DNA from: a virus
Lineage: Duplodnaviria > Heunggongvirae > Uroviricota > Caudoviricetes
Length of the DNA: 64,000 nucleotides
Direction: 5' to 3' (one strand)
IMG/VR virus record: IMGVR_UViG_3300028898_000252
Coordinates: 285,946 to 349,945 of that record
A model generated the notes under the pieces. That model searched no databases. It saw only the letters and a list, made by a program, of their open reading frames with translations, and was not told the DNA's origin. How positions within the stretch are numbered: the first letter of the stretch is position 1; every line of letters begins with the position of its first letter. The position numbers and the translations under genes were made by a program. This document shows positions 17,115-31,572 of this stretch, in pieces.

Positions 17115-17253
17115 TGGGAGAACGTGGATTAGCACGGTATATGCCAGGAATTACTTCAAAAACCCCCTAAAACCGCCCCCTAGGGGCCTCGTTTTTAACC
17201 CCTTGTTTAAGCCAGGGCCCATTTGCGGGTTGAAACCCCAGGCCCTGTATCCA

Positions 17254-17778
17254 TTATGTGGTTTCGATTTTCTTAAAGTCGTCTCCGAATCGAATGCGCT
17301 CACTTGTAACGCATTCGTCTGAATACTTCGAGAGAATCTTTTCGACGGCATCAATTCGGAGGTTGATTGCCTCGAATGTTTCTGTGTAGCGGTGAACGCG
17401 GATTCTGCGAGCCGTACAGGAATAGTTGTTAATCCCTGAATACTTCAATTCGTTTCTGTAACCAGTCACCGCTACTGGTTTACCAATGGGAGTAAGATGC
17501 TCGACATTTTGCTCGCCGTAACGTTCCCAGAACAAGTTTCGCCAGGAATAGCCTGTGCCGTTATCTCCGCTTCCGTAGAGCAAGTCGACTGCCGACATAA
17601 TGAGGTTGCCGATATCGCTGCTCATATCGTTGCAGTTTTTTGGAATTCGTTTTTCTCTATTCGAGATAGGATAGTCAGCTTCGAACAATGCGTTGTGTTT
17701 CATTGCAATTATATCGAGTGCCAACTCGACGATGGTAGAATCGTCCTCGGGAGTAACCTCCGTGAGTTTGTTTTCCAT
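17254..17778 (-). CDS. Hypothetical protein (island cassette)
   Basis: 174 aa, GGGAG RBS, follows element 17824. Confidence 0.75.
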   Translation of the reverse strand: MENKLTEVTPEDDSTIVELALDIIAMKHNALFEADYPISNREKRIPKNCNDMSSDIGNLIMSAVDLLYGSGDNGTGYSWRNLFWERYGEQNVEHLTPIGKPVAVTGYRNELKYSGINNYSCTARRIRVHRYTETFEAINLRIDAVEKILSKYSDECVTSERIRFGDDFKKIETT

Positions 17779-17865
17779 TTGAAATTGTTTCTCCCTTCTG
17801 TCTATCTCTTAGCACAATCCACGAAGGTTTATTTACCTTGCGAGAAGTATGCCAAGGGAAAGATA

Positions 17866-17900
17866 GAAAAGAAAACGACCCTGAGTGTATCAGGGTGGTT
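17866..17900 (-). terminator. Intrinsic terminator
   Basis: ACCCTGA-TACAC-TCAGGGT then CGTTTTCTTTT. Confidence 0.6.
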
Positions 17901-17928
17901 CTCTCGAAACGATCAAAGCGAGTTTGAT

Positions 17929-18168
17929 TCAGGGTGCCCGCTCGAAAACGGTTTCATCGTTGCGTCGAATTCGGAACTCTGCTGCGCTCAGGTGAGCGAA
18001 AGAACCACCGCGCCCGAATTCGGGGTGGGTTCCGTTGACGAGTTGTTTTGCGTAGCGAGCATCCTGCGCGTCGCGAATGGTTGCAAAATCCAACCATTTG
18101 CCATCGCGCTTGATTTGCGCAACGTCATATTCCTTGAAGGTGTATTCCGCGGGCTGTGTTTTGTGCAT
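17929..18168 (-). CDS. Hypothetical protein (island cassette)
   Basis: 79 aa, GAGG RBS, follows element 18214. Confidence 0.7.
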   Translation of the reverse strand: MHKTQPAEYTFKEYDVAQIKRDGKWLDFATIRDAQDARYAKQLVNGTHPEFGRGGSFAHLSAAEFRIRRNDETVFERAP

Positions 18169-18249
18169 AGTTTGAATTCCTCTCTCTGTGAATATGGTTT
18201 ACCACAATTCTTGGAGGTTTATTTACCTTTCAAGAAGTATGCCAGTCGA

Positions 18250-18684
18250 TCAGTCTTCGCTGATATCCTCCTCTGCCATATCTTTCAGATATGATTCGAA
18301 CGAGGGAGCATTCCAATCACATCCGTATTCGTAGTCGCCTCCGCCCTCGTAATCTTCTCGGTTTTCTCGCCTTTTGATGCGATCGAGACATTCGTTGAGC
18401 GTATACTTGCGAAACGACCTGTTTTTTTCTTCGGAGTAGTTCCGCTCTTCGATTTCCAGCGAACGAAAATCGAGTTCAGACTCTTCGGTTTTGAGCCACA
18501 TTTCTTGCTCGTCTTCGAGGGTTTCGTCGATTCCCTCGGCGATTGCTTGCTTCTCGGTAACACCTTGCGGGTTGCTGAATCGCAAAGTCTTTTCTCTGCG
18601 GCTGTTACCGAGAATGCGGTTAAGGGTAAACCTATCGTCAATATCGAGACGAGCAACAAAACCGCGGCGATGGTTGGTTTTCAT
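18250..18684 (-). CDS. Hypothetical protein starting MKTNHRRGF
   Basis: ATG 18684 with GGAAGG RBS, follows element 18728. Confidence 0.7.
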   Translation of the reverse strand: MKTNHRRGFVARLDIDDRFTLNRILGNSRREKTLRFSNPQGVTEKQAIAEGIDETLEDEQEMWLKTEESELDFRSLEIEERNYSEEKNRSFRKYTLNECLDRIKRRENREDYEGGGDYEYGCDWNAPSFESYLKDMAEEDISED

Positions 18685-18769
18685 TCTGTTGATCCTTCCG
18701 TGGTTATCTCTTACCACGTTTGGCTCTGAATTATTTACCTTGCAGGGACCGTGCCATCGCGGATTCTGA

Positions 18770-18816
18770 AAATAAAAAATGGGCTACTCGGGTGCTGGTT
18801 AGGCACTCGGTAGCCC
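18770..18816 (-). terminator. Intrinsic terminator
   Basis: GGGCTAC-CGAGTGC..GCACCCGA-GTAGCCC then ATTTTTTATTTT. Confidence 0.75.
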
Positions 18817-19003
18817 GTGAGCGGAAACGGAATCTCCGTTTATTTGTGGATTGAAGGGAGCACGTCGCGCGCTCAACCTCGGTTGAAGGGTAGGAAACAA
18901 CAGCAAGAGCGACGAATAGGGTTGCGATTGTTTAGCTCCTCTCTGTGTTTAGGTTTAGCACACCCTTGAAGGAATTATTTTCCTTTCAAGAGATATGCCA
19001 GTG

Positions 19004-19129
19004 TTAGCGGTTGCCGTTTTTGAGGTTGAGGGTTTCGGTTGCCTTTGCGATCATTCCACCAGCGACGAGCGCGGCGAACATCATCACGAAGGCGAAAGCT
19101 GCCCCGTTGGCGAACGTGTTAGCGATCAT
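19004..19129 (-). CDS. 41-aa single-TM peptide (not in ORF track)
   Basis: MIANTFANGAAFAFVMMFAALVAGGMIAKATETLNLKNGNR; AAGGA upstream. Confidence 0.55.
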   Translation of the reverse strand: MIANTFANGAAFAFVMMFAALVAGGMIAKATETLNLKNGNR

Positions 19130-19259
19130 GGGTTTGTGTGGTTTCCTTTCGCTGGCGACGAATCACCGCTGCAACCTCAACGATGCTGTAGGTTGTGCGC
19201 GCGATGGCGAGAATCAACAGAACGATCATAGAGAAATGGTTGTCGATGGAGGGTTCCAT
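19119..19259 (-). CDS. 46-aa hydrophobic peptide (not in ORF track)
   Basis: MEPSIDNHFSMIVLLILAIARTTYSIVEVAAVIRRQRK...; GAGG RBS after element 19300. Confidence 0.6.
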   Translation of the reverse strand: MEPSIDNHFSMIVLLILAIARTTYSIVEVAAVIRRQRKETTQTHDR

Positions 19260-19338
19260 TTGTTTTCCTCTCTGTGAGTATGTCTTAACATACCATTGAA
19301 GGATTTATTTACCTTTCAAGAGGTGTGCCAAGGTTTCG

Positions 19339-19569
19339 TCACTGGTCGGAAGGAAACCAACCCTTCACAACGGCGTTGTGGGCAATTCCAAGACGAAACA
19401 CCTGGGATCGTACTCGAATGCCGCTCGAAGCATTGAACACCTTGATTGAGGCATTCAGGGCGTTTGGGGCGGCATTCAGAGCAGCGGCGAACGCCTCGTG
19501 TTCGGTTGCTCCGAAACCGCTAGCGCTCAGTCCCGTTTGATTACGGGTCCATCGAAATTTACCTTGCAT
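19339..19569 (-). CDS. Hypothetical protein
   Basis: 76 aa; TAATG coupling with upstream ORF. Confidence 0.6.
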   Translation of the reverse strand: MQGKFRWTRNQTGLSASGFGATEHEAFAAALNAAPNALNASIKVFNASSGIRVRSQVFRLGIAHNAVVKGWFPSDQ

Positions 19570-19781
19570 TAGTTCATCACCCTTTCAGGTGCGGTTGAGG
19601 GATCGTGACCGAGGTTGAAAGCGGAGCGAAACAACTGTGCTTGCTCGCGCGTATCCGTGAAATGATCGAACACGGCCCCAGTCACGTCGGAGCGAAAACG
19701 GACCCTCCACATTTCACGCGGCGGGCGTTGGTTGCGAAGAAAAAACGCCTTCAACTTTTCGAGAAGTAACTTGTCGAGCAT
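19569..19781 (-). CDS. Hypothetical protein
   Basis: 70 aa; GGAGG RBS; follows element 19846. Confidence 0.7.
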   Translation of the reverse strand: MLDKLLLEKLKAFFLRNQRPPREMWRVRFRSDVTGAVFDHFTDTREQAQLFRSAFNLGHDPSTAPERVMN

Positions 19782-19928
19782 GACAACCTCCGTTCTGTTT
19801 GACCGTTTCGAATTCCCTTGTGAGTATGTCTTATCACACTCAGTTAAGGTTTATTTACCTTTCACAAACCATGCCAAGCACAGTTTATGAAAACTTTGTT
19901 TTCAAGACCTATGCCAGACTTTTGCCGC

Positions 19929-20312
19929 TCATGCAAACTTGCATGCCGACAAGGTTTTCATCACGGAATACATCCTGTCGATGACCGCGGGGACCTTTTT
20001 GTCGTTGTCGTGGTAAAACATGTTTGCGGCGAGAATAACATTTCTAATCGCCTTGCGCTTGTTCATTCCGACCGCGATATGCACCGCACCGCCACGAATT
20101 GCGATTGAACACCTCCAGCCGTGATCGCGTACGGCATCGAAAACAACATTGACAGGATTGACGCGATTGTTATTCAGCAGGTCGACCAATTTTTCGACCT
20201 TCGCGCCCCCGCTGTAAACCTCGATAACGGCGGCTTCGAGCAAGGTATTGAACCTTTGCTCTCTTGCTTCGATGGCTCGAAAGAATGCCTTGAATGATTC
20301 GAATTGTTCCAT
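19929..20312 (-). CDS. Hypothetical protein
   Basis: Start reassigned to MEQFESF with AAAGGG RBS. Confidence 0.65.
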   Translation of the reverse strand: MEQFESFKAFFRAIEAREQRFNTLLEAAVIEVYSGGAKVEKLVDLLNNNRVNPVNVVFDAVRDHGWRCSIAIRGGAVHIAVGMNKRKAIRNVILAANMFYHDNDKKVPAVIDRMYSVMKTLSACKFA

Positions 20313-20494
20313 TGTGAAACCCTTTCGTTGGAGAATGACAGCCGCAGAAATAGGATTTGCACCTACAGTTTCCTCTGTTTTGCAGAGGTTTTGGCCACGA
20401 TTCGGCACGGGACCTATTCCCGTTCTGCGGTATAGACTTGTTAACACAACCTCGAAGGTTTTATTTACCTTTCAAGAGGTGTGCCAACGAAGGT

Positions 20495-20707
20495 TTAGTC
20501 GTGATACCAAACATCCTCGCCGTGAATGTTTTTCGACGGAAAAACAACCGTATCCGTGTCCTCGTTGTGCTTCGTGACAGCGAACATCACCTTTCGCTGA
20601 GCGTTGCGCAGCACCTTGCGAGCAAAGCGCTTGAAACCATTGTGAAAGTGGCGATGGTGGGAGTCCTCGCTGCGAGCGGTGAATCCTCGACGGTGGTTCG
20701 TTTTCAA
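20495..20707 (-). CDS. Basic peptide starting MKTNHRRGF
   Basis: 70 aa, TTG start, GGGAG RBS, follows element 20750. Confidence 0.65.
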   Translation of the reverse strand: MKTNHRRGFTARSEDSHHRHFHNGFKRFARKVLRNAQRKVMFAVTKHNEDTDTVVFPSKNIHGEDVWYHD

Positions 20708-20844
20708 TTCCGTTCTCCCTTCTGTCTAGGTCTTAACACACTCTATCGTGAATTATTTTCCTTTCACGAATCGTGCCAAGGTTGACCAAGAGGCTGTCTC
20801 GGTGGGTTGAGGCATTCAGAATTAATTTCAAAATCTGTGCCGCG

Positions 20845-20874
20845 AAAATAAAAAAGCCCCGATTCGCTCGGGGC
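20845..20874 (-). terminator. Intrinsic terminator
   Basis: GCCCCGA-GCGAA-TCGGGGC then TTTTTTATTTT. Confidence 0.8.
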
Positions 20875-20912
20875 GTGGCGGGTTTGGTTATGTATCCAAA
20901 CCAATTGGTTTC

Positions 20913-21287
20913 TCAATCCTCGTTTTCCGACGAGAACGCGATCGAACGAATTCCGATCTCATGGTAGTTTTTCCATGAGAATGTCAGCCGCTTCGAATCG
21001 TCATCGCAGCCTTTCAAAACGACGTGCGTGCAATCCCCCGATTGCGTGACGACCGAAGCGACCTCCCACAATTGCGAGCCGTGCGCTCGCTTTCCCTTCA
21101 CTTCGAGAATGTCACCAACCTTGACGCGCGAAAGGATGATCCACACGGGATCGCGTCGCGTTCGGTCCGAAACTTGAAATTTTCGTTCGGTCAAGTCATC
21201 GTAGAGGCGGCGAGCCTTCGTGTTTTCATTCGCCCACGCGCGAAACGAACCGATGATTGCCGAGAGGATATCCTTGTTGTTGCTCAT
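20913..21287 (-). CDS. Hypothetical protein (possible SH3-like C-terminus)
   Basis: 124 aa; VKVGDILEV. Confidence 0.65.
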   Translation of the reverse strand: MSNNKDILSAIIGSFRAWANENTKARRLYDDLTERKFQVSDRTRRDPVWIILSRVKVGDILEVKGKRAHGSQLWEVASVVTQSGDCTHVVLKGCDDDSKRLTFSWKNYHEIGIRSIAFSSENED

Positions 21288-21335
21288 GTTTCTTTTCTCT
21301 TTTCTTTTCGTTGAAGTTGATTGAAGGGTTGGTTT

Positions 21336-21710
21336 TCAGAGAGAGAGGGCGAAAGCGATATCGAGAGCAACAGGGGTTTTGTTTTCCTCCGTTACTCCGT
21401 TGTACTTGATCGCGTGTTCCGCGAGGTTGTAGTGGTCAATCAATTCGACCTCGCAAGGTAGGGGAGTGTTGCAGGCGAGCCGCGTAATCGGAGGCATTTT
21501 TTTGTCTCCGAAAAGTTTTACCAACAAAAACTCTGTTCCGTATTGACCAGTGGAGGCGGAACTTGCGGTCAATTGGTAGACCGCAGAAACCTCTTTGCGG
21601 CCTTTCCGAAATGACAGCAAGAAAAACCTTGCAACCTTGACAAACACCGTAATCGAACAACCGAGTGTTTCGGTGTTGATTCGATCACCAACCTTGAAAA
21701 GATGGTTCAT
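21336..21710 (-). CDS. Hypothetical protein
   Basis: Start reassigned to MNHLFKVGD with AAGGGA RBS. Confidence 0.65.
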   Translation of the reverse strand: MNHLFKVGDRINTETLGCSITVFVKVARFFLLSFRKGRKEVSAVYQLTASSASTGQYGTEFLLVKLFGDKKMPPITRLACNTPLPCEVELIDHYNLAEHAIKYNGVTEENKTPVALDIAFALSL

Positions 21711-21866
21711 TCGTTTTTTCCCTTGTTGCTTGACGAAAACCTTGTCGGCGACTGGCTTATCGACAATAATTTTCTTGGGGTTGCGAGACAGGGTGATTCC
21801 TGGCCAGTTTCTATCTCTTATCACAGCTTTCAGCATTGAATTTTCCTTTCAAGCGCTATGCCAAGA

Positions 21867-22049
21867 TTACCTTTTCCGTTGTTTGATTTTCGAACCAGAG
21901 GGCACCACGAGAAACCATTCGAACCTGTTGACAATTGCATTCCAAACCTTGTATCTCCGAATCACTCTCGTGTAGAGAGCACCTTGACGCAGGGTTTCGA
22001 GGTATGAGTCGAACGGACCCAGGTGGTTTTCTGAATAACAGTCGCCCAT
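21867..22049 (-). CDS. Hypothetical protein
   Basis: 60 aa; AAGGTGA RBS; follows element 22101. Confidence 0.65.
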   Translation of the reverse strand: MGDCYSENHLGPFDSYLETLRQGALYTRVIRRYKVWNAIVNRFEWFLVVPSGSKIKQRKR

Positions 22050-22136
22050 TCGTTCACCTTCCCTTGCTGGCGTGTCTACCTCATATCACGATTGATTCTG
22101 TTTTATTTTCCTTGCAGGGATCATGCCAGCAGTGGA

Positions 22137-22355
22137 CTACTTCGAAACCTCAACTCCAATAATCAAAACCATCGGAGGCTCGCCTACAGAAGTCTCGAAA
22201 CCAGAAACTTTCGTCTGGAAAACTTCATCCTTCTCTGGATTATCCATGAGAGCTTCATTCAGTCGGAGGATCAACCTTTGCGCTTCATCACGCGAAAGGC
22301 CGATAACCAAACGATTTTTGAAAATCTCGTCTGCGGTTTTTTCCCAGTGCGCCAT
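22137..22355 (-). CDS. Hypothetical protein
   Basis: MAHWEK start, AAGGA RBS; follows element 22399. Confidence 0.65.
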   Translation of the reverse strand: MAHWEKTADEIFKNRLVIGLSRDEAQRLILRLNEALMDNPEKDEVFQTKVSGFETSVGEPPMVLIIGVEVSK

Positions 22356-22490
22356 GATCTTTTCCTTTCCGTGGTTATGATCTAACACATTCAGCTCTGA
22401 ATTATTTACCTTGCAGGGATCATGCCAACCACGGGAGATTGAGAATTATTTTCAAATTGCTGCGGCACAAAAAATGCAGGGCCAAAAACG

Positions 22491-22530
22491 ATAAAAGGGC
22501 AACCCGCTTGTTAAAGCGAAGTTGCCCCTT
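22491..22530 (-). terminator. Hairpin/terminator after the tRNA-ncRNA operon
   Basis: GGGCAAC-TTCGCTT..AAGCGG-GTTGCCC then TTTTAT. Confidence 0.65.
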
Positions 22531-22569
22531 TGGGTTTATTTACTTTGCAAACCGTGTGCCAACGTTTAG

Positions 22570-22644
22570 CGTCTCTGATAGGACTTGAACCTATGACCTA
22601 CCGCTTAGAAGGCGGTCGCTACTATCCAACTGAGCTACAGAGAC
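22570..22644 (-). tRNA. tRNA-Arg(UCU)
   Basis: GTCTCTG/CAGAGAC acceptor, TAGCTCAGTTGGATAG D arm, ACCGC-CTTCTAA-GCGGT, GGTTCAAGTCC; CCA not encoded. Confidence 0.92.
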
Positions 22645-22649
22645 AAAGC

Positions 22650-22732
22650 GTCTCGTAACGTTACTGTGCGCCGCTTACACTACGGTTTTGAGGCCGCGGA
22701 GAGTCGAACTCCGTCTGCAACGTTTCCGAGAC
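22650..22732 (-). ncRNA. Circularly permuted tRNA-like RNA (YrlA/Y-RNA-like)
   Basis: Order stem - T arm (CGGAG-TTCGACT-CTCCG) - closed acceptor hairpin - TA - D arm (GTGT-AAGCGGC-GCAC) - stem. Confidence 0.7.
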
Positions 22733-22919
22733 TGAAACAGTCTACAGGAGCACTGTTTCGATGTGCAGTCGATACGCAATCCGTCTCGTAACGTCATCGC
22801 GACGTTGGATTGTCCACTATTGGCAATCAACCTTTCGAGGTTGACTCTCGCTCTCGCCGCGAGAAGGCTAGTGGTGCTGAGAGCATATAATACCGACATA
22901 TCCCCTCGGTTAACGGGTT

Positions 22920-22988
22920 GACTGAGCGGTTTAACTGTTTAACCTAACAGGTTACCCTGTGCAGGATTCGCACCCGCATATCTCAGTC
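22920..22988 (-). ncRNA. Circularly permuted tRNA-like RNA (YrlA/Y-RNA-like)
   Basis: GACTGAG-ATAT-GCGGG TGCGAAT CCTGC-ACAGG GTAA CCTGT-TA-GGTT AAACAGTTA AACC-G-CTCAGTC. Confidence 0.72.
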
Positions 22989-23197
22989 GGTGTGATGGTG
23001 GTTTGTATTGTTTCACTAGCATTCAGTAACCATCGGTACCGAATGCCAGCGGCCACGATTTATTTAACCCAACACCGAGCATTGTGGCTTGTTTGGTATT
23101 GGACCACGGAATTATTCTCCGTGGATTTGCTTTCCTTAAATGGTGGAAAGCACGACAGCGTTTACGACTCCATACTATATGTCGCCTCTAGCATGAA

Positions 23198-23262
23198 TGG
23201 TGCTCTCATATGGACTCGAACCAATGCCTAGCAGCGCGGTTAAGCGCTCTAGGTATGAGAAC
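23198..23262 (-). ncRNA. D-armless tRNA-like RNA with encoded ACCA
   Basis: GTTCTCAT/ATGAGAGC-ACCA, CCTAG-AGCGC-TTAACC-GCGCT-G-CTAGG, TGG-TTCGAGT-CCA. Confidence 0.7.
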
Positions 23263-23387
23263 ATGTTTTATGTTAAGGAATCTATCGTTTTGACGTTGTT
23301 GCCCCGATCGCCTCGCTCTCTCTGTCTACATTCTAGCGCGACCGAGCAAGGTTTATTTACCTTTCAAGTATCGTGCCAGGGAAAAGG

Positions 23388-23516
23388 GTACCGCCGCGGG
23401 AATCGAACCCGCTTTAGACGTTCTAGCCAACGTCTAAATCTCCAAGGTAGAACCCCATAGTTTTATCGGTGCTTGACTAGAGCGCCCGCTATGTTGTCTA
23501 ACTTTAGGTAGCGGTA
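23388..23516 (-). ncRNA. 129-nt tRNA-like RNA (acceptor + T arm + two long hairpins)
   Basis: TACCGCT/GGCGGTA, GCGGG-TTCGATT-CCCGC, TTTAGACGTT/AACGTCTAAA. Confidence 0.65.
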
Positions 23517-23519
23517 TAG

Positions 23520-23602
23520 TGCCAGCAACGGGACTTGAACCCGTATGCCCTTGCGGACGGCGGATTTTGAATCCGCTGCGTATTCCATTCCGCCACGCTG
23601 GC
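23520..23602 (-). tRNA. tRNA-Leu(CAA)
   Basis: GCCAGCG/TGCTGGC-A, GCGGA-TTCAAAA-TCCGC, long variable arm GTCC-GCAA-GGGC, GGTTCAAGTCC. Confidence 0.93.
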
Positions 23603-23949
23603 ATTTGTTCTGCAATCTCGTTTGCAGAGGACGATACCGAGACACATTCTAATATGCGGCTCGATATTAACACGCTGGGATGACACAATGATCATCCGTG
23701 TGGTACAGCTTAGTTTGATATGTGTACCTAGTTCACAGCCCGCGGTTTTCATTGGCTGCAAAACAAGTTGTGCCAGTCACTTAGCCCGTGTTTGCAGGAT
23801 ACGCGCACGCCGACTAGCTTACGCTCGCGTTTCCGACGTATGGGATATATTACCGTTCACTCGCTTTCCTTTTCGTTGCTGCCCGCCCCATGAATCTCTC
23901 TTACCACACCCGAGCAAGGTTTATTTCCCTTGCAAGCGCTATGCCAGGG

Positions 23950-24189
23950 TCAGAGCGCGACCACCGCGAGGGTTTCGCGACCGTTTTCCCACGGGCAGAG
24001 CCACGCTTTCGCGTAGCCGTTGGGTGCTTGCACGATCACGGGATTACGGGGCGACGCCCGTTTCGCGCGGCAAGCGCGGACGATTTTGTCCACCCCAGAA
24101 TCGATAGAATAGTGAGTCACGAATGTAGCTGCCGTTTCGTTGAACTCGAACACCACTGCTTTCGAATCGTTCACTTTTGCATCCTCCAT
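23950..24189 (-). CDS. Hypothetical protein
   Basis: 79 aa between elements 24221 and 23916. Confidence 0.6.
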   Translation of the reverse strand: MEDAKVNDSKAVVFEFNETAATFVTHYSIDSGVDKIVRACRAKRASPRNPVIVQAPNGYAKAWLCPWENGRETLAVVAL

Positions 24190-24254
24190 CCCCCATAATC
24201 TTATGTTAGTACAACCGAGCAGGGTTTATTTACCTTGCACAAGCCATGCCAGAG

Positions 24255-24617
24255 TTAGACCTTGGCGGAATCCTCCGCTCGACGAATAACCCACCATTCG
24301 GTTCCCGCGCCGTCGCGGTCGATTTCACCCACAAGGATGAATTCATTGCTGAGCATATCCATAAACACGCCCTCCCATGCCCCGCGGGTTGTTCGAACGG
24401 ACACACCGAGGATTCTGGAAAACTCAGCCGCAGCCGCAGATTTTCTGACTACGGACGAAAGATTTGTCTTCCGAACGTCGATCTTTCCGCCGCCGCTCAA
24501 TTCGAGCTCGAAACCCTCTTGGGTTTGCTCGATCGCAGTCACGGGAATGAATTCGAGATTCAACCGTTGACGAGCGACGATATTCAAATCGAGACCATCC
24601 GACACAATGCAGTCCAT
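24255..24617 (-). CDS. Hypothetical protein
   Basis: 120 aa, AAGGG RBS, follows element 24669. Confidence 0.7.
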   Translation of the reverse strand: MDCIVSDGLDLNIVARQRLNLEFIPVTAIEQTQEGFELELSGGGKIDVRKTNLSSVVRKSAAAAEFSRILGVSVRTTRGAWEGVFMDMLSNEFILVGEIDRDGAGTEWWVIRRAEDSAKV

Positions 24618-24710
24618 TGTTTGAAACCCTTTCTTCGTTGGTGTGTTCTCTGTATAGCAGACCCTAGCAAGGTTTATTTACCTTGCAATCGGTATGCCAA
24701 GGATGATTAG

Positions 24711-24781
24711 TAGGTCCAGAAGGAATCGAACCTTCGTTAACTGGTTAAAAGCCAGCTACTCTACCATTGAGTTATGGACCC
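24711..24781 (-). tRNA. tRNA-Lys(UUU)
   Basis: GGGTCCA/TGGACCT-A, GCTGG-CTTTTAA-CCAGT, GAAGG-TTCGATT-CCTTC. Confidence 0.93.
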
Positions 24782-25130
24782 TTAGAGCGCCGCTGTTTAC
24801 CAACGATTCCCCGTATGCGGGGCAACCTCGGGACAGCGGGCGGTTTTGCACCATTCTTTTATTCGTTTTAGGCCGAATCACACCCGTTAGGTAGCTATCG
24901 GCCTATCGTTTACGACGATACATCAGCGTTTCCTCTTCGCTATATTATTAGAACCTACGCATGCGCGCGGTAGGCTTATGGGTTCGAGGTAGTGAATGCG
25001 GAATGACCCGCGCCCGTATCGTGTTGGCAGCGTGCGGTTTCGCTCGGTATCCGCTGCTAGTTTTACCGATCGACTAGCAACCGCTCAGTGGAGCGGCTGA
25101 CAAGGTGTGTGTAGCACGACTCGGCAGGGT

Positions 25131-25469
25131 TTATTTACCTTGCACCGTCTGTGCCAGCGGGACGCCGCCCGACCACGGGGCATCGTCGATCATTTCGAAA
25201 ATGGTTTGAATTTCCTCGACTGAAAGAGTGGTGTCGTGATACCACTCCGTCAACCTTCGGTCGAAAGCGTCGGCAAGGTCGCGGGTTTCAGCGAATTCGA
25301 ATTCGACCTCTTCGAACATCGAATTGTAAAACCTCGGAGGTTGCTCGCCATTTGCCGCGCGGTGTTCGATGATCGCCTGCTCGCATTCTCCCACGAATTC
25401 GGCGAGTTGTTCTCGCGAATAACCGCGGAGTTTCAGCGTTTGCAATTCTGAGAGATTCTTCGTCGACAT
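25131..25469 (-). CDS. Hypothetical acidic protein; stop codon supplied by the next element
   Basis: MSTKNL start; ends LAQTVQGK-TAA, the translation of element 25126-25156. Confidence 0.65.
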   Translation of the reverse strand: MSTKNLSELQTLKLRGYSREQLAEFVGECEQAIIEHRAANGEQPPRFYNSMFEEVEFEFAETRDLADAFDRRLTEWYHDTTLSVEEIQTIFEMIDDAPWSGGVPLAQTVQGK

Positions 25470-25546
25470 TTTCTTTCGTTGCTCCTCTCTGTGGGTATGT
25501 CTTACCACACCCTTGAAGGAATTATTTACCTTGCAAGCGGTGTGCC

Positions 25547-25579
25547 AAAAAAAATAGGCTTGGAATAGATCCGAAGCCT
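25547..25579 (-). terminator. Intrinsic terminator
   Basis: AGGCTT..AAGCCT then ATTTTTTTT. Confidence 0.65.
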
Positions 25580-25769
25580 CTCACCATTCGTTATATCGCC
25601 TTCAACCGCAAGTTAACTTAATAACTCGCTGAATGGCCGCACTCCCAGGCATCGCGCTATGGACTAGCCTTATGGTTGCGCTTTGTTATGGCCGCTTGCA
25701 CGGTTTGGTTGAAGCAATGCCGTTATCCAACGGCGGTATTGGCTTGACAGAGAATCCTGTTCTCTGTCA
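25580..25769 (-). ncRNA. Candidate structured ncRNA downstream of tRNA-Ile
   Basis: No minus-strand ORF; long-range pairing TTGCTTCAACC/GGTTGAAGGCGA plus two hairpins. Confidence 0.45.
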
Positions 25770-25846
25770 TGGTAGGCGTAAATGGACTCGAACCATTGAC
25801 CCCACGGTTATAAGCCGTGTGCTCTAACCGACTGAGCTATACGCCC
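25770..25846 (-). tRNA. tRNA-Ile(UAU)
   Basis: GGGCGTA/TACGCCT-ACCA, CACGG-CTTATAA-CCGTG, AATGG-TTCGAGT-CCATT. Confidence 0.9.
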
Positions 25847-26037
25847 AACGAATGCGGCCTCGCCTTATTCAGCGCCCGCGGTGAATGCTAACCAGCTTGT
25901 CACGGCCAGTGCATTATTTTACCTGCTTTCCGTATCGTTGCGGGTTGAGGTTTTGAGGCAACCTTGCTCGTTGCCCCGTGAGTATGTCTTAGCACGACTC
26001 GGCAGGGTTTATTTGCCTTGCACCGTTCGTGCCAGGG

Positions 26038-26346
26038 TTACGCCAGCTTCGACCACGCCAGCGCGAACAAACGCACGGCGAAAGCCAGGGCGAAAACCGC
26101 AGCGCTCACCCTTGCAATCCCCAGCGCGTTTTTTGACGTTCCGTAACCGTACTCGGACGCAAGAAAACTGTTTGTCAGCCTCTCAGCGATCATGGAAACC
26201 ACGAAAAGCGATCCAAACAACAACAGGTGTTGTCCTGCGGAGAGCGAGAGAAACATCCCGAAAAACGTTCCGATCGCGCCCGAAGCGATGGCGAGCACAA
26301 GCAACACAGCCGCCGCGACTGCGGCGAAAACCTTACCAAAGGTCAA
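26038..26346 (-). CDS. Small multi-pass membrane protein
   Basis: About 3 hydrophobic segments; TTG start just after the upstream stop (start uncertain). Confidence 0.6.
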   Translation of the reverse strand: MTFGKVFAAVAAAVLLVLAIASGAIGTFFGMFLSLSAGQHLLLFGSLFVVSMIAERLTNSFLASEYGYGTSKNALGIARVSAAVFALAFAVRLFALAWSKLA

Positions 26347-26348
26347 GG

Positions 26349-26729
26349 TTACGACCTTCGCGAGTGTGACGCGCGCTGGAGAATCGGAAGACCAAGAACA
26401 CCACTCGGTCCAACCTTTGCAAACGCATCGGTTTGCTCGTTGCCGCGTTCGCCAGGGACGAAAAGCGTCACCTCGGCATAGCGGTTGCTGTGCCCCGCGC
26501 AGCACTTGGTTTCACTCGAAACCGTTGCGCGCCAGTCAGAAGCGGAAAAAAACTTTTCCGTTTCCTTTCCCGCAGCGTCGTGTCGGATCACTTCGACCGC
26601 GTAGCGCTCCAATTGGAGCCGTTCGCGGAGTTCATCGGCGTGCATTTCCGCCGCTGTGCGTGTGTCGAGCTCCATTCCTTCATCGAAGGAAACATCGCCA
26701 CTGTCTGAACCATTCACTTCGATCGTCAT
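26349..26729 (-). CDS. Hypothetical protein
   Basis: 126 aa, GGAGGT RBS, follows element 26797. Confidence 0.7.
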   Translation of the reverse strand: MTIEVNGSDSGDVSFDEGMELDTRTAAEMHADELRERLQLERYAVEVIRHDAAGKETEKFFSASDWRATVSSETKCCAGHSNRYAEVTLFVPGERGNEQTDAFAKVGPSGVLGLPILQRASHSRRS

Positions 26730-26831
26730 TGCCTACCTCCATGTAGGGTTGCTAGAGGTTATCTCCAGCAACAACTTTTGAATAACACAACCCTCGAAGG
26801 TTTATTTACCTTGCAGGGATCATGCCATTCT

Positions 26832-26892
26832 TGGAGGGCTTGGGAGAATCAAACTCCCCGCAAAGTTTTTGCTTTGCGAACCATTAAGCCCT
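26832..26892 (-). ncRNA. Minimal tRNA-like RNA (acceptor + T arm + one hairpin, TCCA end)
   Basis: GGGCTT/AAGCCC-TCCA, GGGAG-TTTGATT-CTCCC, GCAAAG-CAAAAA-CTTTGC. Confidence 0.55.
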
Positions 26893-26897
26893 TGCGG

Positions 26898-27380
26898 TCA
26901 CTCCGCTAGTGCCGCCTGAATCTCGGAAAGTTTCTTCTCGAAGGTGAAACGAGTTTCGAAACGCTCGCACACTTCGCGCAATTCCTCGAAACCACTCGCG
27001 ATTTGTTCGAGCGAATCGGGGTCAACCTCGTTGGGCGCGGTGCGGTCGACCAGCTTCGCATACTCGGTCAACTCGATTCCGAATTGAGCGCCGCGCCAAT
27101 CTCCGTTAGCGTCGCGGTAGTTGAGCACACGCTTTTCGAGCGCGTACATGATCGCGCCGTCCACATCACCCGCCTTTTGCGCGGTGCGCAGCTCGACCAG
27201 CTTCCGATACGACGCGCGCAGGTTTTCCACACCCGCGACGATCATATCAAACTTCTCGTCGACATTCGCGTTTCGAAACGCCGCCAAGTTTTCGAGCGGC
27301 TTGTGCTTGCACGCGTCGAACGAGCGCGTGGCTTCGAGAAGAGCCGCCTTATCTGCAACAACAACAACGTTCGTTCCCAT
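26898..27380 (-). CDS. Hypothetical helical protein
   Basis: MGTNVV start; GC3-rich codons; follows element 27467. Confidence 0.7.
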   Translation of the reverse strand: MGTNVVVVADKAALLEATRSFDACKHKPLENLAAFRNANVDEKFDMIVAGVENLRASYRKLVELRTAQKAGDVDGAIMYALEKRVLNYRDANGDWRGAQFGIELTEYAKLVDRTAPNEVDPDSLEQIASGFEELREVCERFETRFTFEKKLSEIQAALAE

Positions 27381-27612
27381 TTTTTTCTTTTGCTCCAATG
27401 TTTGAAAAACCGTTCACTTGCTGTGTGAGCACCGTTGCTCACACTCTCTACTTAGCACAACTCGACAAGGTTTATTTACCTTGCAGGGTTCATGCCAAGC
27501 GTGGCACTTCCGCCGAGGGTTGCACTCGGCATAGCTATTGCTTGTTAGCTTTAGCTATCGTGTCCTGGTGACACCGAAAGTGTTTTGTTCTGCCCCTTTC
27601 GGGGCGAGGGTT

Positions 27613-28236
27613 TCAACCCTCGGCGGTTTCGTCGTCGGTCGCAGCGTCGAGCGCTTCGAGCGCGGGCGAATTGCTCAGGTCGGTTGCAGCCGCGCCAGCA
27701 AACCGCGACGGAGGCGCGGAAAGCGCGACGACACGCGCCGTGCGCGCAGGCTTCGCGGGCTTGGGAGCCTCGGGAGCCTTGGGTTTGATTCCGAGCATCG
27801 CAGCGACCGAGGTTTGCGGCGCGTTGGGATTGATTCGCGCGATTCCCGCGCACTCCATTGCAGCGCGGAAGGTTTCGATCAGTGACAGCGCCTCGATCGC
27901 GCAACCCGCGCTATCGCGCGAGTGGAGCACGAAAACGTTGTCGCGACCGATGACCTCACTGCCGTACACGACCTCGCCGCGAACGATGCGAAGCAACAGC
28001 GTCGAGCCCGCCGTGTCCGAGTTTGGCCCGCCGCGCGCGGCGCGCACGCCTTCGAGCAGCGCGAGCGCCGAGCCGCCTTCGTCATCGGTCAAGCGGAACA
28101 TCACGGGCTCTTGTGGCTCGATCCACAGATCAGACTTCGACGCGTCGCCGCCCTCGCCGCACTGCTCGCGAACGTGCGCAACGAGCGCCGCGAGAACCAT
28201 TCCAGCGACAACCGAACGAACAGAATTCTTGCTCAT
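27613..28236 (-). CDS. Hypothetical protein with A/P-rich disordered C-terminus
   Basis: MSKNSV start; follows element 28332. Confidence 0.7.
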   Translation of the reverse strand: MSKNSVRSVVAGMVLAALVAHVREQCGEGGDASKSDLWIEPQEPVMFRLTDDEGGSALALLEGVRAARGGPNSDTAGSTLLLRIVRGEVVYGSEVIGRDNVFVLHSRDSAGCAIEALSLIETFRAAMECAGIARINPNAPQTSVAAMLGIKPKAPEAPKPAKPARTARVVALSAPPSRFAGAAATDLSNSPALEALDAATDDETAEG

Positions 28237-28331
28237 GTTTTTTTCTCTCTTTTCTTTCGTTTTGTGAACTCGCGAGCACCGCAACCGTGCGGTGCATCAT
28301 CTCTTGTGAATCTCTCTTAGCACGACTCGGC

Positions 28332-28362
28332 AAGGTTTATTTACCTTGCACCGTCTGTGCCA
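28332..28362 (-). promoter_or_regulatory. Representative sigma54-type -24/-12 promoter
   Basis: TGGCACAGACGGTGCAAGGTAAATAAACCTT; GG-N10-GC; upstream of the ORF starting at 28236. Confidence 0.75.
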
Positions 28363-28532
28363 ACCTAACAACCATCGAAACTCACGTTCGCAGGTTAGGT
28401 GGGATGGTACGAATGTTGTTTGTTCGTGCCGTCCCGTCTACTCTGCAACCGATACCCTGTCATGTGCTCTGTCTAGCACACTCTCGGAAGGTTTATTTAC
28501 CTTTCAAGTATCGTGCCAGGACAGTTTCAGGC

Positions 28533-29054
28533 TCAGTCGTCATCGGCAGCATCGAAAAACTTGCCGATCGCGAGGAATTCACCGCGAGTGCAAGCGGCGT
28601 GCCACTCAGGATTCGAGCCCGTCCCGTTTGGAATCGGGCTGAAATTCAATTTCTGTACCATCGTGCGGCGTGCTTTGAATTCGGCGAATCCTGGGAATTC
28701 AACCGAAGCAAGCACCGCGCCGTTGTTTTTCGACCAGTCGTAAAAGTACCGTTGTTTTCCGACGGCACCGTCGTCGGCCAGTGGGGCAACAACGAGACAG
28801 CTTGTTCCTCGCGCCCCGCGTGAGGAATGATTCCCCAGCAAAATGAATCGCCGCTTGTTGATTCGCACAGTTGAATACTTTGGCGCTGCTTTTGCAGCAA
28901 GCACCGTATCCCGCTGAAACTCGCTGAATTCATCGTAGTCAGGCGAATCCCGCTTGATTCGCCCCTGGCGAGCACCTTCGCCTGCGGTACAGTCAAGGTC
29001 GAGCCTTTCAGGCTCGACAACATTGTCATTGTCATTGTCGTTTTCGTTTGCCAC
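28533..29054 (-). CDS. Hypothetical protein
   Basis: GTG start with GAGGAG RBS; NDNDND microrepeat; follows element 29098. Confidence 0.7.
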   Translation of the reverse strand: MANENDNDNDNVVEPERLDLDCTAGEGARQGRIKRDSPDYDEFSEFQRDTVLAAKAAPKYSTVRINKRRFILLGNHSSRGARGTSCLVVAPLADDGAVGKQRYFYDWSKNNGAVLASVEFPGFAEFKARRTMVQKLNFSPIPNGTGSNPEWHAACTRGEFLAIGKFFDAADDD

Positions 29055-29296
29055 TCGCTGTGCTCCTCTCTGTGAATCTCTCTTAGCACGACCGACCAAG
29101 GTTTATTTACCTTGCAGGGTTTGTGCCAACAACCTTGGTCGTTGGAGTTTCGAGCGAAACGCGGCGATCGTCCGTCCCGCCCTGTGTTCTCTGTCTAGCA
29201 CAACCCAAGGTGCTTTATTTACCTTGCAAGCATCATACCAGGGTTGGGCGTTTGGCGCGGTGCGAGCCTCTATCGACCGCGCGTACACGCGTGCGT

Positions 29297-29370
29297 AGCA
29301 TAAACCATGCCAGGTAAGACTACCTAAAAAAACCGTTGGCATGATACTTGCAAGTGGCATGGTTTATGCC
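29297..29370. promoter_or_regulatory. Divergent cluster of three GG-N10-GC boxes at the right island edge
   Basis: Minus 29297-29312; plus 29337-29352 and 29355-29370; perfect 15-bp inverted repeat 29298-29312/29355-29369. Confidence 0.75.
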
Positions 29371-29485
29371 TTCGCGGGGCAACCCTCAACCGTTACCATA
29401 TATGGCAGTATGAAACACCTAAACATTTAGTGAAATGAAATTTAATGAAACTAGGTATGAATTTTATTTGTACTAAGGTTTAGAG

Positions 29486-29959
29486 TTAAACTTTGTATTT
29501 TATAAAAAGAGTTTCGAGTTTTGTTTTAAGTTCTGGATAATGATAAAGGAAACTTTTATTCTTTTTTGGATCAAGGAGTCTTTCGTAAATTTGTTTGTAT
29601 GAGTTTCTCTCAAGCCACGAGAGATAAGCTGAAATAAACTTATCATCTTCGAGATAGTCAAACAAAGTGACTTCAACCATTTCAAAAAATGTTTCTTTGT
29701 CGAGTTTAATTGTTTTGGAGCATATTAGAGCATAATATGCACAAAGTTTTTTGATAAGAAACTCATCATTTTCAAAATCAAGAACTTGTGGTTTTTGGGC
29801 TTTGGGAGAGGAAGTATTCCAGTTTTGGGAAACAATTATTGTCGATTGTGATTCATGTGCGGTAATTGTGTTATAAGAAGGGTCAAACAAAATGGCACGG
29901 TAATCACAACCTGTAAATGTTTTAACAAAGGTTTTGAGTTCTTTGTTTTCAAGTTTCAT
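29486..29959 (-). CDS. Hypothetical protein
   Basis: MKLENK start with AAGGAGG RBS. Confidence 0.75.
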   Translation of the reverse strand: MKLENKELKTFVKTFTGCDYRAILFDPSYNTITAHESQSTIIVSQNWNTSSPKAQKPQVLDFENDEFLIKKLCAYYALICSKTIKLDKETFFEMVEVTLFDYLEDDKFISAYLSWLERNSYKQIYERLLDPKKNKSFLYHYPELKTKLETLFIKYKV

Positions 29960-30121
29960 TGTTTTGTTGCCTCCTTTTTTTGATTGTTTTGTTTCAACCC
30001 AAACTCTTATTGTTTTGGGTTGATTTATCTTAGCCGCAAACCTTATAAAAGGTTTGGGATTTAAGCTTTGAATTAATATGATAAACATTTAGTATTTTGA
30101 CCCTCCCCTCCCCTTAAAAGA

Positions 30122-31300
30122 TTAATTCTTTTTAGAGTTAAGCTGCGAAAGGTTTTCTTCAAGGGCTTGGTCAATAACTTGCAAAGTATCTCTAAACTGT
30201 TGAGTAAAACTATCAGTAAGGGCTTTGAATTCTTTCTTGAGATTCACATTATCGTTTTCGGCGGAATACCATTCGATTCTGAATCTATCAATAACTTCTG
30301 AATACTGGGAAAGGAATTCAAGTCCTTCGCAGATTGATTTATCAAACACTTCAATTGGATAGTTTCTCAGGTCGAGGCCGTTTGCCTTGAACAAGTTTTC
30401 GTAGGCAAACTTTGCAAGAAACTTTCCAATGAAGCCGAATTGATCTGTAACCTCTTCTTCGTTGTTTATTTCAATAGAAGGAATATAAACAGTCCATTTA
30501 TCAAGTGGAGAAATAAGAGTTTTGTTATCGTCTCTTGCCGATGATCCTGCGTCGGCGAATCGCATAATAACAAATGGTCCATATTGACCATCCCCAGAAT
30601 AAACTTGATAACCAACCATTCCTTTCGGAAAAGGATTCTTTCCTCGCTTTGCCGCGACAGAATAGTTGATTCCAAGGTTCATGTTTCGATAATCAGACCT
30701 TCTTTTCGATTCTTTCCATTCTGCCTTTTTAATATTGTTTTCAATTTCGATTTGCTGAAGGTGTTTGTTGTACAGATTCATAATCTCTTCATCGGCATCA
30801 ACTTCAACAAAAAGACCATCCTTTTTAAAGGATTTTCCTTTGTAGAAAACAGGAGGCAAATAAACATTACTTGTTTGAATGTGTTCAGCTGCAAACTTTT
30901 TTTCTTCTTTAAGATAGTAGGTGATAACAAGACTGTCATTATTCAAACCATCATAGTAATATGAATTCATTTCAACATTCACAATTGGATTTGATGGGTC
31001 GATAATATATTTCTCTGTGACTGAAATCCAGCCATATTTGTTGACGATTGGTTCTTGTGCCTGAAACATTTCAAGATACTTTTTTTGGATTGCCTCGAAT
31101 TCTTCTTTCTCGTGCAAGTAATACACAGGGGAATTTGAACATGTTTCATAGTTTTTCAATTCCTCTTCGGTCATTTCGTTTCTGCGGCGAACTCTCTTTT
31201 CGACAAGTTCGCTGTAATTCAGTTTTTTTCTCAATTCCTCGTGAGCTTTGTATGCAGGGTTTTCATCCGTTCGGAACACACTCAACGACTTTGCGACCAT
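30122..31300 (-). CDS. Hypothetical protein under the outlying element 31407
   Basis: 392 aa, GGGAG RBS. Confidence 0.8.
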   Translation of the reverse strand: MVAKSLSVFRTDENPAYKAHEELRKKLNYSELVEKRVRRRNEMTEEELKNYETCSNSPVYYLHEKEEFEAIQKKYLEMFQAQEPIVNKYGWISVTEKYIIDPSNPIVNVEMNSYYYDGLNNDSLVITYYLKEEKKFAAEHIQTSNVYLPPVFYKGKSFKKDGLFVEVDADEEIMNLYNKHLQQIEIENNIKKAEWKESKRRSDYRNMNLGINYSVAAKRGKNPFPKGMVGYQVYSGDGQYGPFVIMRFADAGSSARDDNKTLISPLDKWTVYIPSIEINNEEEVTDQFGFIGKFLAKFAYENLFKANGLDLRNYPIEVFDKSICEGLEFLSQYSEVIDRFRIEWYSAENDNVNLKKEFKALTDSFTQQFRDTLQVIDQALEENLSQLNSKKN

Positions 31301-31572
31301 GTTTTTATTTCTCCCGAGTGAATTGGTTTTTGTTGCCCCGATTATCGCTGCGGTGAGCCTCTATCACTCGCGCGATCACGAGCACACGCATAGCACAATC
31401 CCCCGCGGATTATTTACCTTGCAACGACCGTGCCAGCTACCGAGGGCAAGAGGATTCGACCCCGCAAAGTTTGCAGGTTTCGCGAGCCTTTCAGTGTAAC
31501 GGTTACCCGAAACAAACGATCAAACAAGAAAAACAAAAGTGTAATGAAATTAAATCATATTAATTTCAATAG

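Follow-up and report, generated by a model that had tools for sequence, protein, structure and literature searches.

The window analysed here is a stretch of 64,000 nucleotides, bases 285,946-349,945 of the complete 390,884-bp virus record IMGVR_UViG_3300028898_000252, which carries direct terminal repeats. Judging by a capsid gene of the T4 gp23 type in its genome (E 3e-59), the phage is of the T4 type. Within the window lies an island with a GC content of 47-58%, compared with 30-35% in its flanks and 33% in the whole genome, in which a 45-nt element recurs 26 times, each copy heading a unit of 112-2195 nt (Table 1). Four of the 26 units hold a tRNA on the element strand, and several lack any open reading frame (ORF). 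Behind about 14 of the 26 copies a purine-rich Shine-Dalgarno sequence and a start codon were found, which agrees with the leader and ribosome binding site that the original prediction had noticed after many of them. That prediction had described the element as a composite promoter, in which a second box, GTGnTA, is placed exactly 24 nt after the -12 dinucleotide of a sigma-54-like promoter. According to the analysis presented here, GTGnTA is best read as the foot of a stem, not as a second promoter.

Spacing of the repeated element

Columns were counted on the minus strand from the T of TGGCA (column 1), and copies are named after the window position of this base. All 26 copies, whose 5' T lies between window positions 17854 and 31435, are co-oriented and align without any gap, with T1, G2, G3, A5, G14, A16, G19, A21-A23 and T24 being invariant throughout. 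GTGnTA occupies columns 40-45, so that columns 16-39, exactly 24 nt, lie between it and column 15. The exact box is present at column 40 in 21 of the 26 copies, and four further copies (19330, 23378, 24251 and 24699) carry one-base variants of it in the same column. The remaining copy, 22561, lacks the box; this is the truncated copy which had been reported earlier, as 22532, to be without it. The nine copies for which the fixed spacing had been listed at that time all proved to be correct. In none of the 26 copies was the box found at any other offset within 70 nt.

The spaced pattern of TGGCA, G(C/A), 24 nt and GTGnTA, with one mismatch allowed, yielded 25 matches in the window, compared with 0.23 expected from shuffles, and the motif did not occur outside the island in the rest of the 390,884-bp genome. 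A metagenome scan added eight short contigs of relatives with 18 further distinct copies, in all of which the box column is unchanged. Of 43 distinct copies in total, on which many of the comparisons below are based, 37 contain the exact box. Most of the remaining single-copy metagenome matches, among them a family of 10 contigs, have the appearance of conserved 3' ends of coding regions and were set aside as not being promoters. No relatives were found when a viral collection was scanned with the motif and with the 392-aa protein.

Table 1. Window coordinates of the island and of its 26 element copies (columns 1-45); z refers to hairpin stability relative to dinucleotide shuffles, SD to a Shine-Dalgarno sequence
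Feature	Position	Strand	Remarks
GC-richer island	17130..31435	-	26 co-oriented cassettes: small orphan ORFs, 4 tRNAs, ORF-less units
Copy 1	31391..31435	-	box GTGCTA; putatively drives 392-aa and 200-aa ORFs
Element copy	29196..29240	-	5' foot TGGTA, box GTGCTA; 112-nt unit, no ORF
Element copy	29084..29128	-	box GTGCTA; then SD and GTG start
Element copy	28474..28518	-	box GTGCTA; 156-nt unit, no ORF; in L029 fused to unit 26827 body
Element copy	28318..28362	-	box GTGCTA; hairpin -21.6 kcal/mol
Element copy	27453..27497	-	box GTGCTA; z -3.98
Element copy	26783..26827	-	box GTGTTA; z -3.37
Element copy	25990..26034	-	box GTGCTA; tRNA-Ile(tat) at unit end
Element copy	25503..25547	-	box GTGGTA; z -4.05; then SD and ATG
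Element copy	25112..25156	-	box GTGCTA; tRNA-Lys(ttt) at unit end
Element copy	24655..24699	-	variant box CTGCTA; z -4.82
Element copy	24207..24251	-	variant box GTACTA; weak hairpin, z -0.29
Element copy	23902..23946	-	box GTGGTA; tRNA-Leu(caa) within unit
Element copy	23334..23378	-	variant box GCGCTA; tRNA-Arg(tct) at unit end
Truncated copy	22517..22561	-	5' foot, -12 box and AT loop present; 3' arm and box gone; then strong hairpin with T-run
Element copy	22383..22427	-	box GTGTTA; no stable hairpin, z +1.57; unit missing in L028
Element copy	22084..22128	-	box GTGATA; no stable hairpin, z +0.67
Element copy	21819..21863	-	box GTGATA
Element copy	20734..20778	-	box GTGTTA; z -3.36; SD and TTG start, ORF paralogous to unit 18756 ORF
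Element copy	20442..20486	-	box GTGTTA; z -3.14
Element copy	19832..19876	-	box GTGATA
Element copy	19286..19330	-	variant box ATGTTA; then SD and ATG
Element copy	18956..19000	-	box GTGCTA; best hairpin, -20.8 kcal/mol, z -5.67; SD but no start codon
Element copy	18712..18756	-	box GTGGTA; no stable hairpin, z +2.1; 3' arm of L033 orthologue pairs
Element copy	18200..18244	-	box GTGGTA; then SD and ATG
Last element copy	17810..17854	-	box GTGCTA; z -3.83; SD and ATG of 174-aa ORF

Complementarity between the two arms

GTGnTA is, with one wobble, the reverse complement of TGGCAY, and the whole element is a 45-nt imperfect inverted repeat of which these two boxes form the feet. Further inwards, AAGG (columns 16-19) stands opposite CCTT (columns 28-31), around a TAAATAA loop. 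Between columns 1-7 and 39-45, 92.4% of the cells are paired in the 43 distinct copies. The pairs U1-A45 and G2.U44 occur in all 43, C4-G42 in 39 (plus two U.G), A5-U41 in 42 and Y6-G40 in 40 (plus one U-A), while the pair of columns 7 and 39 covaries (AU in 15, GC in 11 and GU in 13 copies). Beyond the conserved feet an extra flanking pair, -1/46, is formed as T-A ten times and as C-G three times. Overall, 80% of the structure is paired; shifting one arm by 1-3 columns lowers this value to 27-43%, and three of 500 shuffles reach 80%. This hairpin, with column 4 pairing with column 42, is the minimum-energy fold in 37 of the 43 copies, and 13 of 20 window copies have a z of -2.2 or below relative to dinucleotide shuffles. 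Cognate arms fold with -14.4 kcal/mol and chimeric arms taken from different copies with -12.8 kcal/mol, a difference whose p-value is optimistic because the copies are related. RNAalifold did not return a consensus structure for the ungapped alignment, since the register in the middle of the stem shifts between copies.

The two strands differ in their folding. The hairpin is more stable in the sense than in the antisense orientation (-14.4 vs. -12.1 kcal/mol; Wilcoxon p 0.002), as the non-Watson-Crick pairs are mostly G.U, and this points to an action at the RNA level. Column 44, opposite G2, is always T and never C. T44 keeps the wobble in the RNA, with the consequence that no GG, and hence no mirror -24 box, is present on the antisense strand. 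As the 3' arm is one base shorter than the 5' arm, a mirror -12 box would furthermore be displaced.

These asymmetries bear on a reading at the DNA level, in which a forward sigma-54 site would face a degenerate mirror (TAnCAC, its -12 part being displaced by one base) and the duplex would be bound by a phage regulator or a parked sigma-54 holoenzyme, or would serve as a recombination hotspot, with the RNA fold being incidental. Two loci of a 322-kb T4-type relative (G001, see below), at which perfect face-to-face box pairs share one AT-rich centre, fit such a quasi-palindrome, and so do the cassette junctions inside the element and the conserved AAGG-TAAATAA run, which would be expected of a protein-binding site. 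However, it leaves aside that the sense strand folds better by means of G.U pairs and that complementarity persists although the sequence in the middle of the arms varies; the feet, 39 bp apart from centre to centre, would also be awkward for a single dimer. This explanation is therefore regarded as unlikely. A promoter active as single-stranded DNA (Frpo-like) was considered as well and rejected, as a hairpin of the template strand would put C.A mismatches at the critical GG.

The putative promoter core and the second box

The GG of the first box and the G of TGC are invariant in all 43 distinct copies and stand 10 nt apart, which is the spacing of sigma-54 promoters. Among the window copies, T13 is present in 25 of 26, and the -12 position is C in 17 and A in nine. 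The core thereby shows the sequence pattern of a sigma-54 -24/-12 promoter (GG and TGC 10 nt apart, TGGCAC-N5-TTGCW). TGGCAY-N6-TG(C/A) matches sites bound by Salmonella sigma-54 (PMC3844500). The bound Salmonella sites include TTGA variants (PMC3844500), which the nine TGA copies of the element resemble. Like these RpoN promoters, the element has TGGCAY, 6 nt and TG(C/A)A; the distance between GG and GC is exactly 10 nt, and also the flanking T, the A and the Y-R after GGCA agree. Unlike them, it comes with a complementary downstream arm, with 11 conserved bases from -11 to -1 and in 26 copies within 14 kb of a phage, and neither an activator gene nor a shared upstream site was found. The remark of the original prediction that an ordinary sigma-54 promoter does not require a second box is upheld.

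The second box had been proposed to belong to a nested promoter. TRTG-n-TA is a form of extended -10 regions, and the t-G-T-G-n-T-A of columns 39-45 resembles it. TG-n-TA would accordingly begin an extended -10 region, read by the host sigma-70 or by a phage factor of the sigma-70 family, with a start at the CA of columns 55-56 and a short Shine-Dalgarno leader. T44 and A45 are indeed invariant with a free column 43 between G42 and T44, and, as in sigma-70 extended -10 promoters (TGn-TATAAT), the conserved TG-n-TA is followed by a conserved CA (C55 and A56), 6-7 nt past the would-be hexamer. The phage encodes a 303-aa protein of the sigma-70 family, a GTG is found two bases ahead of the -10 TA in 11 of 21 classical promoters of its genome, and the box is retained without a stable hairpin in three copies (18756, 22128 and 22427). 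However, the GTG of the classical promoters is one base further from TA than that of the element, and column 49, the would-be -7 base, carries T in 2 of 43 elements, compared with roughly 12 of 20 classical promoters. From an extended -10 region defined by TG and a hexamer with A-11 and T-7 the element thus keeps TG-n-TA only; the rest of the hexamer is free, there is no -35 box, with AAATAA standing at that position, and the complementarity of columns 28-39 to columns 7-19 is left unexplained. Nested promoters appear distinctly unlikely in the light of these data. In a variant of this idea, which is compatible with the sequence, the upstream TGGCA..TGC box would be the site of an activator. 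Of the composite promoter as initially proposed, the locking of two boxes into one unit stands, while the mechanism of a second promoter is not supported, given column 49 and the missing -35 box.

Columns 28-45 could alternatively act only as RNA, as an element of the 5' untranslated region past a sigma-54-type start, either with CCUU pairing with the Shine-Dalgarno sequence or with GUGnUA being bound by a phage protein, whereby the complementarity to the promoter would arise only incidentally. In several coding units, minimum-energy folds of the leader from column 26 onwards do pair CCUU(C) with a GAAGG or GAGAGG Shine-Dalgarno sequence. Yet, CCTT and GTGnTA are equally conserved in units without an ORF or a Shine-Dalgarno sequence, and a candidate leader hairpin (35-42/49-56) was no better than shuffles, which makes this explanation highly improbable.

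Two further promoter types were considered. The TAAATA core may also be read as a late promoter of the T4 kind; TATAAATA shows no enrichment in front of genes, and the AT-rich genome contains TAAATA frequently. Reading TGCT as a MotA box was rejected, as there is no -10 element at the required distance.

Cassette exchange and relation to known phage modules

The related contigs differ from the window by whole cassettes, with the junctions lying inside the element. Contig L028 lacks the body of unit 22427, and the switch in homology falls into an overlap of 32 nt that is part of the element. In L029, element 28518 is fused to the unit 26827 body, with 1.7 kb being absent, and L033 carries a 23946-like element directly before the body of unit 19876. 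The orthologue of copy 22561 on L028 has the full box, leader and ORF; copy 22561 of the window is, by this comparison of sequences, a deletion remnant. L045 lacks 350 nt (window 22700-23050), the stretch which holds a sub-threshold Rfam match to YrlA-like RNA (22918-22988; 25 bits, E 0.12).

The relative G001 contains about 27 TGGCAT-N5-ATGCAT boxes on both strands of a 20-kb GC-richer island. In this phage, one GC hairpin precedes the box, an AT-rich palindrome and a second GC hairpin come after it, and GTGnTA is missing. The bipartite box is therefore the unit that is shared, whereas the downstream arm is specific for the lineage. The G001 module (L007/L008, G001 124-144 kb) spans about 140 nt and consists of a GATGCAAG box, a GC hairpin, the sigma-54-like box, the TTAATTAA-centred AT palindrome and the second GC hairpin.

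Repeated modules of this kind have been described for the T4-type phages RB49 and phi1 as promoter-early stem-loops (PeSLs) (Arbiol et al., 2010, PMC2839356). A PeSL is a repeated module of 50-70 nt in which a strong promoter is combined with a stem-loop and with a Shine-Dalgarno sequence and start codon; the stem-loop contains G-T pairs and may be situated between, over or beside the promoter boxes (PMC2839356). PeSLs occur in dozens of copies upstream of orphan ORFs in hyperplastic regions, where they terminate or attenuate transcription, and cassettes are gained, lost or swapped when copies recombine (PMC2839356). The island likewise lies in a plastic part of a T4-type genome and consists of repeated modules of promoter, stem-loop and Shine-Dalgarno sequence with start codon before orphan ORFs, and L028, L029 and remnant 22561 attest to a shuffling of cassettes between copies. 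Unlike the sigma-70 core of PeSLs, the core of the island element is of the sigma-54 type (-24 GG, -12 TGC), its stem encloses the whole promoter together with about 19 nt of putatively transcribed DNA, and this stem is imperfect, AU-looped and without a U-tract, whereas PeSL stems are of polyG/polyC. In addition, many of the island cassettes carry tRNAs or non-coding units. A terminating or attenuating activity of the island stem is putative, whereas that of PeSLs was assayed with a reporter (PMC2839356).

Approximately 21 canonical TTGACA-N16-18-TAnnnT promoters, with a GC-rich stem-loop in or around the spacer, are spread across the phage genome and look like ordinary PeSLs. Three of them are located in the window (37472, 57133 and 62805, all minus) and about 18 more elsewhere in the genome, one being directly upstream of an MnmA-like gene. 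Their presence indicates that the phage is able to maintain the sigma-70 consensus, and does so, at the sites at which this consensus is used. This is relevant for the possibility that the element itself is a diverged sigma-70 promoter, with (T/C)TGGCA as -35 box, a 16-nt spacer and AATAA(A/T) as -10 box, and hence a sigma-70 PeSL with an unusually long stem-loop. A consensus scan reached 10 of 12 positions in three copies and 9 of 12 in three more, published PeSLs are sigma-70 modules, and G001 has a comparable ATGCCA, 17 nt, CATAAA in gene orientation. Perfect TTGACA/TAnnnT promoters are, however, kept elsewhere in this phage, G3 is invariant despite being a mismatch to TTGACA, the conserved T13 and the invariant G14 in the presumed spacer would be unexplained, and at -7 (column 27) as many as 20 of the 26 copies have an A. 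A diverged sigma-70 promoter is hence considered very unlikely.

The explanation that we favour, and to which we give about an even chance, is that the element is a PeSL-like module at cassette boundaries, built around a sigma-54-type core and with GTGnTA as the 3' foot of its stem. The -24 box TGGCAY would form the 5' foot, the -12 box and AAGG the inner 5' arm, TAAATAA the loop, and CCTT with a variable stretch the inner 3' arm. The constant distance of 24 nt between the -12 dinucleotide and GTGnTA would follow from the need of GTGnTA to pair back with TGGCAY. Transcription would be expected to start near column 27, at the end of TAAATAA, with the host sigma-54 holoenzyme presumably reading the core. 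Most likely the stem acts in the sense RNA that results from read-through of the upstream cassette, where it might be an attenuator, a processing site or a 3'-end stabiliser which insulates neighbouring cassettes, while the embedded promoter would restart transcription at each cassette. Read-through from upstream units is likely, as few terminator-like hairpins were picked out: there are only three on the gene strand in the island or at its edge, in a scan that was overall not enriched compared with shuffles.

As for processing, phage T7 has RNase III processing hairpins between its early genes. Like these, the stem is imperfect, about 40-50 nt long and located just upstream of ribosome sites in a presumed read-through transcript. 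Unlike in T7, loop and feet are conserved far beyond the needs of RNase III, cleavage is only putative, and no RNase III gene was found in the phage.

Several observations weigh against the favoured explanation. The three copies mentioned above keep GTGnTA without a stable fold, which implies a constraint beyond the hairpin, be it present or recent. Column 43, opposite the invariant G3, is free and pairs in 29 of 43 copies, and the invariance of T44 and A45 is equally explained by TG-n-TA. Most of the hairpin stability comes from the conserved letters, covariation is modest in the central part of the stem, and the copies cannot be counted as independent. Without a U-tract the stem is not a canonical intrinsic terminator; its 3' flank is A/G-rich (AAGAC and similar), and the elements were not among the hits of the terminator scan. 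With regard to the core, neither a sigma-54 gene nor a Sigma54_activat domain or a sigma-54 DNA-binding domain was found in the phage, which also lacks a recognisable gene for an RNA polymerase beta subunit. Neither the MnmA-like gene nor a 1416-aa protein of the phage pointed to a particular host. No k-mer is common to the 150 nt upstream of the copies, and thus no shared activator site was found there; a host activator may instead act from solution, without an upstream site. The conserved AAGG-TAAATAA run is not explained by sigma-54. Finally, the orientations in G001 are mixed according to a partial check, with many small ORFs being antisense to the box and the sole ORF of a Pfam family (DUF7695) being sense, so that this relative gives no clean support for a promoter function; scoring by codon usage could not orient the ORFs of its island.

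What is contributed here is the explanation of GTGnTA as a stem foot and the link to PeSLs for this lineage. An annotation as two nested promoters is thereby replaced by a structural reading that can be tested, and sigma-54-type promoter arrays of large phages are linked to established mobile regulatory cassettes of T4-type phages. A literature search for the use of sigma-54 by large phages yielded nothing relevant, and no published study of such arrays was found. If host sigma-54 reads the core, the island would represent an almost unstudied route of phage transcription, and if the stem works in RNA, the element would be a natural, compact module of promoter and insulator. A far-reaching and quite improbable extension of this idea is that the island is an inducible bank for counter-defence. 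Its 26 self-insulating cassettes of tRNAs, tRNA-like RNAs and small orphan proteins would stay behind tightly silent sigma-54 promoters until a host stress activator, for example an RtcR-type sensor of damaged tRNA, acts from solution, and the RNA stem would trim or attenuate read-through, with the effect that the cassettes are expressed individually. If this were true, a T4-type phage would run an accessory programme on the sigma-54 holoenzyme, untouched by any shut-off of sigma-70 through the phage.

Regarding the contents of the cassettes, the island ORFs gave no family above threshold against Pfam and PHROG, with only two sub-threshold matches, and Rfam, with gathering and E-value thresholds, returned only the four tRNAs besides the sub-threshold YrlA-like match. 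A tRNA or tRNA-like structure often closes a unit, immediately before the next element. Shortly before elements 23378 and 31435 there are T-arm-like GGTTCGA(A/T)TCC motifs with acceptor-like ends (minus strand, window 23379-23450 and 31440-31500); neither was called by ARAGORN or Rfam. Unit 19000 (18931-19000, minus) has the full leader and a strong Shine-Dalgarno sequence, and ATC at the position of the ATG of its sister units, as is also the case in a relative (L033:405-474); the unit is either a dead cassette or non-coding. The ORFs at 18250-18717 and 20495-20707 (minus) begin with the common peptide KTNHRRGF..., and as paralogues they support real coding in at least these two cassettes.

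Outside the island, a motif of about 26 nt with TTCCTGGA was seen upstream of nine gene starts (genome 66430-92093 and 386370; window approximately 6061, 40042 and 47396). As it reads as a conserved peptide (approximately EFPIIPGME) at seven of the nine sites, the motif probably represents a repeated C-terminal domain and not a promoter. At genome position 240608 (minus), a good sigma-54-like box is immediately adjacent to a CTTGAC...TAGAAT promoter of canonical type.

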